From the IMG/VR virus record IMGVR_UViG_3300014204_000112, positions 149,923 to 213,922 of that record: a stretch of 64,000 bases of DNA; one strand, 5' to 3'. The position numbers were made by a program, and so were the translations under genes. This stretch comes from a virus (Duplodnaviria > Caudoviricetes). Each line of letters starts with the position of its first letter. The stretch's first letter is position 1. Below the pieces are notes generated by a model. It saw only the letters and a list, made by a program, of their open reading frames with translations, made no database searches and was not told the origin of the DNA. Below, piece after piece: positions 8,843 to 15,927 of this stretch.

Positions 8843-8893
8843 TGCATTTGACCTTTATTTCTATTTATAATAGTCATATGCAATTATTGTTAG

Positions 8894-8964
8894 CGGGTCC
8901 TCCTGGGCTCGAACCAGGGATCGAAAATTAACAGTTTCCCGTGATACCTCTTCACCAAAGACCC
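8894..8964 (-). tRNA. tRNA-Asn(GTT)
   Basis: ggaaa-ctGTTaa-ttttc. Confidence 0.88.
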
Positions 8965-8970
8965 AATGTA

Positions 8971-9132
8971 TTGAACGTGTCGACCACCCAACAAGGCCGA
9001 TGTTATGGTGCAATTTGAAGCGCCGCACCTGGATTAGGGATTTCAGAGGTTGTTACTTGTGCTCAGCCTACGGGCCACTCACTTTCTTTATGCATGTCTT
9101 GCATCGATTTCGCAACTTGAACCATCGTTCAA
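8971..9132 (-). ncRNA. Candidate structured RNA
   Basis: Closing stem ttgaacg/cgttcaa, internal atgca/tgcat and ggtgc/gcacc hairpins. Confidence 0.45.
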
Positions 9133-9140
9133 TTTTTTAT

Positions 9141-9216
9141 TGGAGCGAGAGACGGGGATCGAACCCGCTGCATCCAGCTTGGAAGGCTGGCACTCAACCA
9201 AATGAGCTTCTCTCGC
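9141..9216 (-). tRNA. tRNA-Gly(TCC) with encoded CCA; first tRNA of the array
   Basis: Canonical cloverleaf. Confidence 0.95.
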
Positions 9217-9420
9217 AATTATGGTAAGGGGATTCTCACGAAGGCCCTTACCTTGTCCGGAGGATGGTCGCCTCCAGACGTTATGCCAATATTTCCCAAG
9301 ATGTCAAAGAACATCGTAACTGTAGCGATGTCCTGCTACTCTGTTACTGTGTGAATGAAGTTGGACTCGACCAACGTGTATTCTCTAATTCACTCGTATT
9401 TCAAAAGAACTGATGCCGTA

Positions 9421-9458
9421 AAACGAAAAAACCCGGACTTTTTGAAGGTCCGGGTTTT
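9421..9458 (-). terminator. Intrinsic terminator (attenuator) upstream of tRNA array
   Basis: aaaacccggac-cttcaaaaa-gtccggg then ttttttcgttt on - strand. Confidence 0.85.
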
Positions 9459-9488
9459 CCCTAGATTTCGTGATATGTTATTTCACCT

Positions 9489-9614
9489 TCACTCTAACCT
9501 ATGTAAACCCAGACCCATTCTTTCGTCGCATGACGGATTCCATGTGCCAATAAATCCCACGAGGGCTATTGGTTGGGAACTACGATACGACTTATGTAAG
9601 TTCTGGTTTTTCAT
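9489..9614 (-). CDS. 41-aa leader peptide containing all 20 amino acids (MKNQNLHKSYRSSQPIALVGFIGTWNPSCDERMGLGLHRLE)
   Basis: Hand translation; 31 distinct codons in first 32; A-rich leader and GATAAATA box at 9638-9645. Confidence 0.75.
   Translation of the reverse strand: MKNQNLHKSYRSSQPIALVGFIGTWNPSCDERMGLGLHRLE
9505..9515 (-). promoter_or_regulatory. Antiterminator GGUCUGGGUUU within leader ORF
   Basis: Pairs 11/11 (one G.U) with the terminator 5' arm AAACCCGGACC at 9447-9457. Confidence 0.7.
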
Positions 9615-10123
9615 TGGTTTTTGTGTTTGTTCAGGTTTATTTATCACGATACTTCAAAAAGTTTTCGCTTTAGTTTTGATATTTTACCACTTTTTTTCTG
9701 GGTTGGTCGATTTTTTTTCTTGGGCCACCAAATTTATTTAAGTCGTATGGCGGTAAGTAATCGTCTCCCGTTGGAGTGGATGTTGTGTTGTACTCTTCAT
9801 TTACTTTTCGGTTTTCACCGGAATTAAACTCTCTTGCAACTTTACCAAATTGGCATAGAACATTGGCCTGTTGAAAATAAAAAGAGCCGTTTCGTATGCC
9901 GTGTGCATGGCCAGGTAAGCGTAATGAATGATGATCAAAATCAGAGCTACTATTGCTCCTGCGATCTTTGCGGCTCCCTTGAACTCCTTCATCATATTCT
10001 TCATTCTCTTCCAGTGGATGCCTTCTTTCTTGTAAACTACACCTAAGTAAGTCATGTTATTTTGATTTGATATTGCAAATATACCAACTATTGCTGAAAC
10101 GAAAAAATCCTGGTGAAACTTTT

Positions 10124-12518: not shown

Positions 12519-14102
12519 TTATTTCTGGTATTTTTCTTTCTTAAGGTGTTCCTCAATCGTTGCTCTGATTGCGGCTAACGTTGTCCTGCGAACGATGACT
12601 CCATCGACGAATACTGGCTGCAACATTCCTGTCGCTTCTTCTTCCCAGGTAACTCCGTCGGTGTAGGTCATGTCTTTGTTCACTCTGACGAGACCGCGAG
12701 CTGATTTCTTCATTCCGCTGTCGGTGATGGGATCCTTAAAGATTTCCTTCTGGCGACCATCTACAGTTTCGGCGAATGTAGCTTTCATCGCCATCATGTA
12801 AGTGTCCCTAGTGACGTACTGGTAGGTGTAGGAACCGATTCCGAGGACCAGATTGGAAGCACAGAATCCCTTTTCTTCGAGCCGTGCAAGAATGTCCCTC
12901 TGTCTCTGCATCGTAATGGAATCGCCGTAGATCAGGCCGATGTGAGTGTCAAGCTGTTTGTAACCTTTTTCTGTCGTAGGACCAGGAAACATGGTGTACA
13001 GGTATTCGTAAGCTCCGAGGAATTCAGCATCAGTCATTTCCTCAGCAATCTTATCGTCTGATTTGAAGAAGTACTTCGGCTGGTCTTCGCTGTAGTCAAT
13101 CACGATTTCGTTGACCCTGTAGCCAGAAACGATGTGAACTGGTTCTCCTGAGTCGGGACGAATTACGAGACGACCGTTACGGGCGAGGATTTCTGTTTTG
13201 AGGCCGGGGATCAGGACCTTCAGAACTTTCCAGAAGTTCCAGGTGTCGGAAACCACGGAGATCGGGCCATCCGGATAGATCTTCGTGATCAGCCGTTTGA
13301 AAGTATTGTAGTCCGAGTCAACACATTCGTCGCGGGTAAGACCCTCTGATGCGACCATGTGGATCATGTGCTCGGTTGCCGGGATGCTACCGCCAATGAG
13401 TTCAGTATTGCTATCAGCCCCGTAGTAATCTTCGAGGAAGTCGATTGCAAGAATGGTGTCGGTGCCGGTGAAACTTAGAAGGTGTGCTGCTCCGGAAAGA
13501 GCTGCATCTTCTGGGCCTGACATTCCACGGAACGAAAAGTCGTGTCCCTGCCATTTCACGAAGTCCATCGGACCGTCAGTGAGACGCATGTGGCGTTCGA
13601 ATTCTTTCCTGTAATGGAACGCGGTCGTTGCACTGGTGCAAGGTTTCCACAGAACGCAGCTGAGCAGCGATTCCAGGTAATTGGTCAACCATGCGAAACG
13701 TTTGTCACCGTGCTTGGTGTTGCGAATGGTGAGCATTGGGGTACGCATTGGAACGAGAGTTCCTTCAGGTACGGCCTTAATCACAAGCGGCAAGTAGCCA
13801 AGATCATGGAGAGCTTCAATGTGAGCTACTGGAACCGTTCCAGGTCCGAGTGAGCTATCCATTCTTCTCTGGTACTTACGTACGACCTTCGCCTTCGGTT
13901 TGAAGAAGAATTCGTCGTTCCAGTTACGGACAAGAAATTCCTGAAGGAAGTACTGGAGGCCGAAGAACACGATCTCATCAGCCCATGGAACCCTGGTTCC
14001 GCGAGGAGTGAATGTCGAATAAATGACGACCGTGTCTTCCGGTATCATCATTGGGTGTCCGACTTTGTAGAAGTCGGCCGCGTGCAATGGGAAAATTTTC
14101 AT
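12519..14102 (-). CDS. Nicotinamide phosphoribosyltransferase-family protein (probable NARP1 Namat)
   Basis: ADFYKVGH, HDFSFRG, SIPATEH, VSDTW, IRPDSG, IYGDSIT, KKSARG. Confidence 0.92.
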   Translation of the reverse strand: MKIFPLHAADFYKVGHPMMIPEDTVVIYSTFTPRGTRVPWADEIVFFGLQYFLQEFLVRNWNDEFFFKPKAKVVRKYQRRMDSSLGPGTVPVAHIEALHDLGYLPLVIKAVPEGTLVPMRTPMLTIRNTKHGDKRFAWLTNYLESLLSCVLWKPCTSATTAFHYRKEFERHMRLTDGPMDFVKWQGHDFSFRGMSGPEDAALSGAAHLLSFTGTDTILAIDFLEDYYGADSNTELIGGSIPATEHMIHMVASEGLTRDECVDSDYNTFKRLITKIYPDGPISVVSDTWNFWKVLKVLIPGLKTEILARNGRLVIRPDSGEPVHIVSGYRVNEIVIDYSEDQPKYFFKSDDKIAEEMTDAEFLGAYEYLYTMFPGPTTEKGYKQLDTHIGLIYGDSITMQRQRDILARLEEKGFCASNLVLGIGSYTYQYVTRDTYMMAMKATFAETVDGRQKEIFKDPITDSGMKKSARGLVRVNKDMTYTDGVTWEEEATGMLQPVFVDGVIVRRTTLAAIRATIEEHLKKEKYQK

Positions 14103-14334
14103 GGTGTATGTTGTTAAGAGTTAAACATTCGGTGAAAAGGACTCGAGCAAGCCGACAATCGCTGCAGAGCAGATGAATATGATTCCGAGCTTGAGAATTA
14201 AGGAATCGGCATGCTTTCCGAACAGTCGATTCTGACCTTCGGTCAATACCGACTGTACTGCGGCTGCGATCCTGAGAAATGCCATACAACAGGCTAATCC
14301 AAAAAATATTGCAGATAACATCATAGTGAAAGAT

Positions 14335-15261
14335 TTATATGGTTTTTTTCGTTTTGAGTCCGTAACGTTCGTTGTATTCGAGCTCGACATTGATCTGGTA
14401 TATCAATGGATCGTCGATTTTCTTTAACAGGTCGGTGCAGAAAATTCCGGCGAAATACTTTCCGAGTTCTTCGAATCCGTTAGAAAATATACCAAAGGTG
14501 ACTGCTAAGTAGATCTTTCCGCAGTTACGTTTTTTGAGTTCCTTGGCGATCTCAATGAATGTTCTTCCTCCGTCGCAAATGTCATCGATGATGAGGATGT
14601 CATTTCCATGAAGGTCTTCCTTATTCACAGTGGTCTGAATAATTTTGCCGGTAGATAATTCCCGAACCTTATCGCAGAGGATGATGTCGTCATTGTAGCC
14701 AATCTCCTTTGCTATGGTGAATATCTTCTTATAGGCTCCGGCATCTGGTGAAACCAGGTTGATCTTTGGCTCTTCTGCTGTTCTCATTGATTGCAGAGCA
14801 TCGAACACCTCCTTGACGAACGAGTAGTTCTTTATTACACAGCAGTTGTCAATGAGGGCAGGGCCGACATCGGAATGCGGGTCGAACACGAAAACTCGTC
14901 CGAACTTCTGTGAATTGATCAAGCCGACGAATGCTTTGACTGAGAGAGGTTCCCCCTCAACGCAGACCCGGTCCTGACGAGCGAACGGAATGAATGAAAG
15001 GAAGAGCCAGAGCTTCGATTCCTTTTTTAACTCGCGAACTGCGTTCGCAGCAAGAAAAATTCGGATGAGGTCATTCCCATTTTGCGGTCTTCCAGTAATC
15101 AGGGTAACCGTATCATCATCGAAATCGAAAGTTTCCGGGTCTAACTTTACATGAGGTTCGATACCGGAATAGAAATCGAGAGAAGCGAAGTCGATATTGT
15201 ACTGAGAGTACACTGGAGCGAAGTCCTTATCGAGATTTAGGGTTTGAATTTTGCTGATCAT
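14335..15261 (-). CDS. Divergent PRPP-synthetase-family protein (probable NARP1 Adps)
   Basis: PFARQDR, DPHS, VSPDAGA, IIDDICDGGRTF; upstream of the NAMPT-like gene. Confidence 0.88.
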   Translation of the reverse strand: MISKIQTLNLDKDFAPVYSQYNIDFASLDFYSGIEPHVKLDPETFDFDDDTVTLITGRPQNGNDLIRIFLAANAVRELKKESKLWLFLSFIPFARQDRVCVEGEPLSVKAFVGLINSQKFGRVFVFDPHSDVGPALIDNCCVIKNYSFVKEVFDALQSMRTAEEPKINLVSPDAGAYKKIFTIAKEIGYNDDIILCDKVRELSTGKIIQTTVNKEDLHGNDILIIDDICDGGRTFIEIAKELKKRNCGKIYLAVTFGIFSNGFEELGKYFAGIFCTDLLKKIDDPLIYQINVELEYNERYGLKTKKTI

Positions 15262-15324
15262 AAGATTCGTTATAGGCGATATTGTACTACATTTCGACCG
15301 TTTGTGTTTCGAATAAATAACGCT

Positions 15325-15927
15325 ATGCAATAGTCAAATCATTCTTGCAGTTCGTCAACGAGAACGAAGAACCCAAACTCAATATCCAGCCATTTTTGGT
15401 TCAATTAGCAGATCTAATTCGAAATTTTGATACGTTCGAAACTGTATCTGTCTAGAGTAATGTAGAAAGTAATTACATTCAAATTACTAAGAGCGATGAT
15501 GTTCATGAATTGGCAGAAGTAAGAGATTCAAGCGGCGATCTTATTCGAATCTATGCTGATTATACGACAAAACTCATGCCAATTTTTACCAATGAATACG
15601 AAATCGGCCTTGCTGAACTTAACGATTTAATTGAACATGGATTTGCCGACATTACTAATTACGTGAAAGGCTTTGCTGTATCTGTTGAAATGAACTGCTG
15701 GTCTAAAGATGCAGAAAGTTGGCGATGGATGACGAAGCGATGAAATGACTGAAGAATCGCTAGAAGATCTCGATGTTACGGTTGGAGCATCGATCGAAAC
15801 TATAGCAGAAGAACTGGCCGAATCAATAAATGATCGATTCAACCAGTTCTACTTGTCCGATGATATACTGCAATCGTCAATTGATGATTACGAAGGCAGG
15901 AATGATGATGAAGAGTCAGAAGATTAG
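15325..15927 (+). pseudogene. Disrupted gene with CTS-like N-terminus (KSFLQFVNE)
   Basis: Frameshift right after ATG, in-frame TAG near 15453, further break near 15743. Confidence 0.5.

Follow-up and report, generated by a model that had tools for sequence, protein, structure and literature searches.

The 42-tRNA cluster of an uncultured jumbo phage, represented by IMG/VR virus record IMGVR_UViG_3300014204_000112, carries at its 5′ end a leader element that we read, with a probability of roughly 55%, as a translation-coupled attenuator acting on transcriptional read-through into the first tRNA genes. The element lies in the last 64 kb of this 213,922-bp record (the whole stretch analysed here, referred to below as the window; coordinates are those of the window unless given as genome positions) and comprises a promoter-like box, a 41-codon open reading frame (ORF), an intrinsic terminator, and a strand within the ORF, R2, that can pair with the 5′ arm of the terminator, R3, in place of the 3′ arm, R4 (Table 1). 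Phage tRNA clusters have been known for more than 50 years, and how a phage times the production of its tRNAs is largely open. The attenuator architecture is well supported by comparison of nine homologous leaders, and sensing by way of a complete set of amino acids in the leader peptide is plausible and statistically supported. Beyond the alignment itself, we infer that the box is a promoter, that the ribosome picks the fold, that amino-acid completeness has been selected, and that the regulated product is tRNA.

The first homologs were reached through a neighbouring gene. With the adjacent 470-residue membrane protein as a query, 40 related loci were found in viral contigs, four of which have a tRNA array starting with tRNA-Gly(UCC), tRNA-Asn and tRNA-Tyr; all four have, immediately ahead of the array, a small ORF with a peptide alignable to that of the window. 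Further members came from searches with the peptide profile in viral contigs, metagenomes and two protein collections, for a final set of nine distinct sequences from about seven lineages (the window, L044, L043, L058, L010, L004, L055, L057 and L032). The neighbouring proteins of these lineages are only 40–60% identical and their synonymous sites are saturated, and the most divergent leader peptide, that of L032, retains about 39% identity. All nine nevertheless keep the AAAACTTTT element, the promoter-like box, the ATG column, a frame of 41–44 codons, the stop column, R2 and the terminator. Where contigs reach beyond the terminator, they continue with a conserved second motif (box 2), two hairpins and tRNA-Gly; in all homologs with sufficient sequence, tRNA-Gly is the first tRNA to follow the leader. 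On the upstream side, the genes of L032, L057 and L058 are different ones, reverse-strand or other genes intervening there, while the downstream tRNA-Gly/Asn side is constant; the leader thus travels with the tRNA array and not with its upstream neighbours.

The small ORF shows the marks of a constrained coding sequence. Its start and stop share alignment columns in the nine homologs, and every indel within it is a multiple of three, which is not the case for indels in the untranslated flanks. The ratio of nonsynonymous to synonymous divergence (dN/dS) is 0.13–0.4 (Nei–Gojobori), and the corresponding mean ratio of proportions (pN/pS) is 0.46 in frame versus 1.47 and 1.29 in the two shifted frames. 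The region from box to ATG is A-rich and free of a Shine–Dalgarno sequence, and in this it resembles other genes of the phage. Together these features point to a translated short ORF in the leader, as in trp and his attenuators. Synonymous divergence in the leader is low (dS 0.59, versus 2.5–3.4 in neighbouring genes, for the window against L004), which fits an overlapping function of the RNA.

That function appears to be a switch between two helices. An initial annotation of this DNA, made before any homolog was seen, had described a 41-codon ORF, a 30-nt gap and a strong intrinsic terminator in attenuator-like geometry. The ORF is present as described, the gap runs from 9488 to 9459, and folding bears out the terminator; conservation of ORF, frame, terminator and antiterminator pairing in the nine homologs, together with compensatory changes, supports the geometry as a whole. 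A predicted intrinsic terminator therefore does stand between the leader ORF and the downstream genes in each homolog. A simple terminator scanner with a loop limit of 8 misses it solely through its 9-nt loop. A strict intrinsic-terminator filter passes only eight hairpin-plus-T-run sites in 214 kb, which makes the leader terminator one of very few canonical ones in the phage.

The annotation had further claimed that codons 34–37 pair 11/11 with the terminator 5′ arm, and this holds if one G-U pair is counted. In the window alone, dinucleotide shuffling yields 11 or more consecutive pairs between the terminator arm and the 173 nt upstream in 0.2% of cases (P = 0.002). Over the nine sequences, 88.8% of cells in the R2:R3 helix are paired and three pairs have changed on both sides; the covariation score of the helix is 0.321 versus 0.200 in shuffles, none of 500 of which reaches 0.321, and sliding the R2:R3 partner by 1–3 columns lowers the score to at most 0.159. 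The pair at columns 147–212 is U-A in five sequences and C-G in four, a pattern that, by our reading of the peptide relationships, would require at least two independent double changes. Moreover, R3 columns 211 and 212 covary both with R2 (columns 148 and 147) and with the 3′ arm R4 (231 and 230), and such three-way covariation is what two alternative helices with a common strand should leave. The compensatory changes between antiterminator and terminator that the annotation had proposed to look for in relatives are thus found, and they link R2, the 5′ arm and the 3′ arm.

Folding agrees with the alignment. When the RNA is folded only to the end of R3, the R2:R3 helix is in the minimum-energy structure of seven of the nine sequences; at full length all nine fold into the terminator, and forcing the antiterminator costs 0.2–9.9 kcal/mol. 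The comparison points to a mutually exclusive antiterminator, the 5′ strand of which would be within reach of a translating ribosome. We consider it likely that a two-state RNA switch is real, and probable, with rather less assurance, that the switch is set by translation of the leader. Two further hairpins accompany these helices. P1, a three-part structure in the ORF, has mostly invariant pairs and a few compensatory ones and coincides with the conserved peptide core; it has no overlap with R2 (codons 3–6 pair with R2 only in the window lineage) and is a possible pause or timing hairpin. P2 is small and holds the stop codon within the R2–R3 loop.

The proposed course of events is as follows. 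The phage promoter (the GATAAATA box) would start the RNA, the first 41 codons of which would be translated, and R2 and R3 would be transcribed before R4. With R2 free of ribosomes, the R2:R3 antiterminator would form first and RNA polymerase would read on into a tRNA-like element, tRNA-Gly and tRNA-Asn. Smooth translation through R2 to the stop codon, which lies 13 nt beyond R2 in the window and about 11–16 nt beyond it in homologs measured by hand, would preclude R2:R3, and R3:R4 would then fold and stop transcription. As R2 is preceded by codons for all 20 amino acids, too little of any one charged tRNA, or generally slow elongation, would hold the ribosome back and give more read-through. 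The 42 tRNAs of the phage themselves cover 20 of 20 amino acids, which we count in favour of this reading.

What the leader senses is a separate question, and here the initial annotation stands only in part. It had proposed a sensor of all codons, on the grounds that the first 32 codons contain 31 different ones and that the peptide has all 20 amino acids by residue 31. Both observations are correct for the window: AAC is the sole repeat, codons 4–35 are 32 consecutive distinct codons, and the 41 codons of the whole leader include 35 distinct ones and specify 20 residue types. The genome has 2,511 ATG-started frames of 32 codons or more, of which the leader ORF alone reaches 31 distinct codons or has 20 residue types within 31 residues; a uniform-codon null gives P = 7e-4 for its codon diversity. 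At least 31 distinct codons are found, however, in 2.1e-4 of all 130,450 open 32-codon windows, at about nine separate places in the genome, and all 20 residue types occur in six of its 466 small ORFs of 35–60 residues. One such codon-diverse ORF per genome is thus unremarkable, so that position and conservation carry the weight; composition of the leader alone would not be convincing.

Codon diversity does not extend to the family. The nine homologs have 31, 31, 31, 30, 30, 28, 28, 27 and 26 distinct codons in the first 32, the more divergent ones 26–28, and the window alone stands out in its synonymous-codon diversity: given the peptide, P is 0.009 in the window and 0.12–0.96 in L055, L032, L057 and L004, and with genome codon usage also taken into account P is 0.10–0.84 outside the window. 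Sampling of isoacceptors is therefore not a family trait; the claim of all-codon sensing fails, and we regard sensing at the level of codons or isoacceptors as improbable. The completeness of the amino-acid set, by contrast, is such a trait: eight of the nine peptides have all 20 residue types, reached by residues 31–34 and, in the homologs checked by hand, 3–4 codons before R2. Positions turn over while the set is kept. Between L032 and the window, eight of the 10 residue types that are not fixed by invariant columns stand in different columns, and in the comparison of the window with L004, Ala, Val and Glu each disappear from one position but occur at a different one; completeness is thus not merely carried over with a single inherited sequence.

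Under the null, the full set of 20 is found in 4e-4 of 33-residue windows and in 0.3–0.5% of 41-residue windows. If only the differing sites are redrawn, all 20 are kept with P = 0.02 (L032), 0.065 (L004), 0.15 (L055) and 0.25–0.33 (L057), and in a tree-aware simulation completeness in at least four of five other lineages has P ~0.003, although these nulls ignore site-specific constraint and are rough. The test is a fair one in that the property had been named before any homolog was seen, and the prediction holds for amino acids. We hold it possible, though with slightly more weight against than for, that sensing of all amino acids is the selected function. More doubtful still is a universal sensor of charged tRNA, in which loss of any host tRNA or amino acid would stall the ribosome, late transcription of the phage tRNA genes would begin, and the new tRNAs would in turn relieve the stall; host shut-off, starvation, anticodon nucleases and other tRNA-cutting defences could be its triggers.

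Several observations weigh against the attenuator reading, or limit it. One group concerns the leader itself. The annotation had predicted codon diversity without conservation of the peptide; instead, the peptide core (roughly residues 10–30) is conserved at the amino-acid level, under purifying selection, which a pure supply sensor would not need and which an arrest peptide or a working micropeptide fits better. The L058 peptide has only 19 residue types, being without Val. In the window, residues 30–31 (the only Asp, and the only Glu before R2) are very near R2, and a stall there would mask part of it. A synonymous G-to-A change in L044 and L004 puts an A-C mismatch into R2:R3, and in L055 the helix is down to 6 bp. 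At the stop codon, a ribosome would overlap R2 by no more than its last 0–2 nt, and the block of R2 at that stage would, we infer, have to be steric. Nor is the element universal among relatives: five distant members of the clade (four complete genomes and one partial) were searched whole and have no leader homolog, and at the heads of the tRNA arrays in the four complete genomes (36–65 tRNAs elsewhere) there is no obvious analog, their large arrays starting with tRNA-Pro and having no analogous small ORF at their heads. The three genes upstream of the leader are retained in more distant clade members.

A second group concerns entry into the array. The initial annotation had pointed to a GATAAATA box, which is found at 9645–9638. 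Many − strand genes, endonuclease-like ORFs of the array among them, have the TATAAATA/GATAAATA octamer about 10–30 nt ahead of their ATG, and the same box ahead of many genes supports the putative leader promoter as a real one; the AAAACTTTT element farther upstream has only five copies in the genome. That part of the array which falls in the window has nine TATAAATA/GATAAATA boxes on the − strand, between 67 and 8869; a short distance past each is the ATG of a − strand ORF, in most cases of the HNH type or otherwise endonuclease-like. The array therefore has many internal entry points, and is a mosaic in which tRNAs are interspersed with probable homing endonuclease genes that each have a promoter box. 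The next internal box (8869) leaves at most tRNA-Gly and tRNA-Asn ahead of it. Box 2, a candidate tRNA promoter or processing signal, is found in each lineage that has sequence at this point, and its distance from the terminator varies; a diverged second copy at genome position 140681 (−) lies about 15 nt before a tRNA-like gene without a leader, and a shorter related motif precedes the tRNA-like element after the terminator by 4–8 nt. If box 2 and the shorter motif are promoters, the tRNAs do not depend on read-through. The earlier claim that the leader gates the tRNA array was thus too strong, given the nine internal boxes and the conserved box 2 after the terminator, and we would put little faith in control of the whole 42-tRNA array as opposed to its first few genes.

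These signals bear on the first of three other explanations, in which the element is a stand-alone small gene or dual-function small RNA. An approximately 200-nt transcript would encode a conserved peptide of 41–44 residues and end at the terminator, which would insulate it from tRNAs transcribed from their own signals. We consider this rather unlikely, although much is consistent with it: the purifying selection on the peptide core, a promoter box of its own, of the type seen at ordinary genes, the strength of the terminator, the conservation of box 2 past the terminator and its recurrence before a tRNA-like gene that has no leader, and a strong nucleotide conservation and stable internal hairpin such as are typical of small RNA genes. 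It leaves unexplained why R2 tracks R3 and R3 tracks R4, as a helix that competes with the terminator would be useless at a plain gene end, and likewise the retention of 20 residue types despite positional turnover; the element also moves with the tRNA array and not with its upstream neighbours. The peptide itself has no family match in PHROGs or Pfam, and AlphaFold gave no confident fold from a six-sequence peptide alignment (pLDDT 55.7, no secondary structure).

Less probable again is a sequence-specific nascent arrest peptide, the core of which (about residues 10–30) would act in the exit tunnel to stall the ribosome near codons 30–31 and leave R2 free, possibly triggered by a small molecule or by some state of the cell, with amino-acid completeness incidental. 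The attenuator architecture supports this equally well as it does the supply-sensing switch, dN/dS is well below 1, and the conserved residues end 3–4 codons before R2, where a stalled ribosome leaves R2 just exposed. The conserved codons coincide with P1, though, so that conservation of the peptide may be in part a by-product; the conserved full residue set is left unexplained, and the low identity of the L032 peptide, about 39%, also weighs against it. To our knowledge, the peptide bears no resemblance to known arrest motifs, which we also count against this explanation. Finally, that an ordinary frame upstream of the preceding operon's terminator should be codon-diverse and arm-like by accident accords with the genome-wide frequencies given above and with the feature having been chosen by a reader after seeing it, but is effectively refuted by the conservation, with covariation, of start, stop, frame, R2:R3 and terminator amid diverged neighbours.

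The attenuator reading can be set beside several known systems. Like the trpL, hisL, pheL, thrL, leuL and ilvL attenuators, the leader has a short ORF followed by an intrinsic terminator, with a ribosome-reachable segment that pairs with the terminator 5′ arm, such that a delayed ribosome would favour the antiterminator. Unlike them, it has no run of any codon or residue, every amino acid occurring mostly once or twice, and no conserved 1:2 anti-antiterminator, a 1:2-like pairing being seen only in the window lineage. P1 shares no strand with the antiterminator, so absence of translation should give read-through and not super-attenuation. The downstream genes are tRNAs rather than biosynthetic enzymes, the element is phage-borne, and the peptide core is conserved. 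In logic the leader appears closer to ribosome-stalling attenuators such as vmlR and mef/mel. We know of no ribosome-stalling resistance attenuator that needs a full amino-acid set. As would be the case here, a short upstream ORF in vmlR (PMC9226507) and mef/mel (PMC4335068) reports general trouble in elongation, and not the lack of a single amino acid, and switches between antiterminator and terminator; those leaders are shorter, respond to ribosome-bound drugs at particular peptide contexts, and have resistance proteins as their targets (PMC9226507, PMC4335068).

T-box leaders likewise couple the supply of charged tRNA to a choice between antiterminator and terminator, as we propose for the phage leader, but do so by binding uncharged tRNA directly, without a translated ORF. 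An Rfam scan of 9100–9900 with E up to 10 gave no T-box match, which rules out a T-box, and no leader family at threshold, the best being Thr_leader at 21.5 bits against a cut-off of 55. Phage tRNAs have been linked to escape from tRNA-cutting host defences (PMC10264068, PMC11555353, PMC11464382); these studies treat the tRNAs themselves and not an element of the present kind, and supply a rationale for making more tRNA. In the literature, our coverage of which is incomplete, we found neither a leader-peptide switch on a phage tRNA cluster nor a leader with the full amino-acid set described. If the proposed reading is true, this would be the first regulated phage tRNA cluster of a leader-peptide kind that senses the health of elongation; it would extend leader-peptide attenuation from the sensing of one amino acid to that of any, and would offer a compact part of about 200 nt for translation-stress reporters. 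Should completeness prove incidental, uncultured jumbo phages would still have a solid new regulatory element in this conserved, attenuator-like switch and its three-way covariation.

Table 1. Positions of the leader element and of the features that follow it, up to the second tRNA of the array.
Feature	Position in window	Strand	Basis or remark
AAAACTTTT element, possible −33/−35-like half of leader promoter	9657–9665	−	Invariant in aligned homologs; also in L057 and L058
Promoter-like box with GATAAATA	9636–9647	−	In all homologs, as TGATA(A/T)ATAAA-like
Leader ORF, 41 sense codons and TGA	9489–9614	−	ATG at 9614, TGA at 9491–9489
P1, three-part hairpin in the ORF, codons ~10–30	9526–9585	−	RNAalifold consensus, nine sequences
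R2, putative antiterminator strand, codons 34–37	9505–9515	−	Pairs with 9457–9447
P2, small hairpin holding the stop codon, in the R2–R3 loop	9470–9492	−	Four pairs, two compensatory
R3, terminator 5′ arm segment common to antiterminator and terminator	9447–9457	−	
Intrinsic terminator, 14-bp stem, 9-nt loop, T-run	9425–9461	−	Fold; ~99% of cells paired across homologs (alignments of seven and of nine sequences)
tRNA-like mini-helix (acceptor-like stem and T-arm-like hairpin) just after the terminator	9350–9394	−	Conserved in L043 and L058
Box 2, promoter-like or processing box, ~29 nt, between terminator and tRNA-Gly	9284–9312	−	Conserved
tRNA-Gly(UCC), first canonical tRNA of the array	9141–9216	−	ARAGORN and Rfam
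tRNA-Asn(GUU), last tRNA before the next internal promoter box at 8869	8893–8964	−	

In other searches for relatives, neither blastn of the region against cultured phages nor tblastn with the neighbouring 470-residue protein gave a match, and no relatives were found through the 230-residue neighbour. Profile searches of 5.8 and 1.8 billion proteins gained only P0004 and P0009; the other matches were long repeat proteins (Sushi, CHU_C), in which a short Trp/Cys motif matched by chance. Scanning 185,579 prokaryote genomes with a DNA pattern returned 52 matches, approximately the chance expectation, none of which encodes the peptide, and thus no real bacterial copy; in the viral set, L070 is likewise a match by chance, within a large protein. 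Two coding candidates within the leader region were also set aside: the internal Met33 noted in the initial annotation is present in the window and is not conserved in relatives, so it was dropped as an internal start, and an antisense ORF (9355–9741, +) was dropped as a gene, its length not being conserved in relatives.

The genome as a whole has a GC content of 42%, and its proteins have weak matches to Lak-type Prevotella phages and Maribacter phages. Since the leaders are free of Shine–Dalgarno sequences and the weak matches are to phages of Prevotella and Maribacter, the hosts of these uncultured jumbo phages are probably Bacteroidota-like. All 42 tRNA genes of the record are on the − strand, between 127.6 and 159.1 kb, and in the window tRNA-Gly(UCC) is followed by 17 more on the same strand. 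At the site of the mini-helix after the terminator, L004, L010 and L055 have a tRNA with a 48-nt insert in its anticodon loop, that of L004 (L004:9043–9158) being recognized as an Rfam tRNA at 35.6 bits. Two hairpins lie between box 2 and tRNA-Gly (9220–9283, −); their sequences vary by lineage while the hairpins, judged by eye, still form, and they look like the structured 5′ leader of a tRNA precursor.

On the other side of the leader, a 20-codon ORF (9738–9800, −) begins one base past the stop of the 121-residue gene. This gene belongs to a conserved trio encoding proteins of 470, 230 and 121 residues, just upstream of which are two NAD salvage genes, for nicotinamide phosphoribosyltransferase and ribose-phosphate pyrophosphokinase (12519–15330, −). 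Outside the window, a tRNA with a CUA anticodon, labelled Pyl by ARAGORN, is found at genome positions 134513–134586 (−); it could be an amber suppressor, a hint that the phage reads through or recodes TAG.

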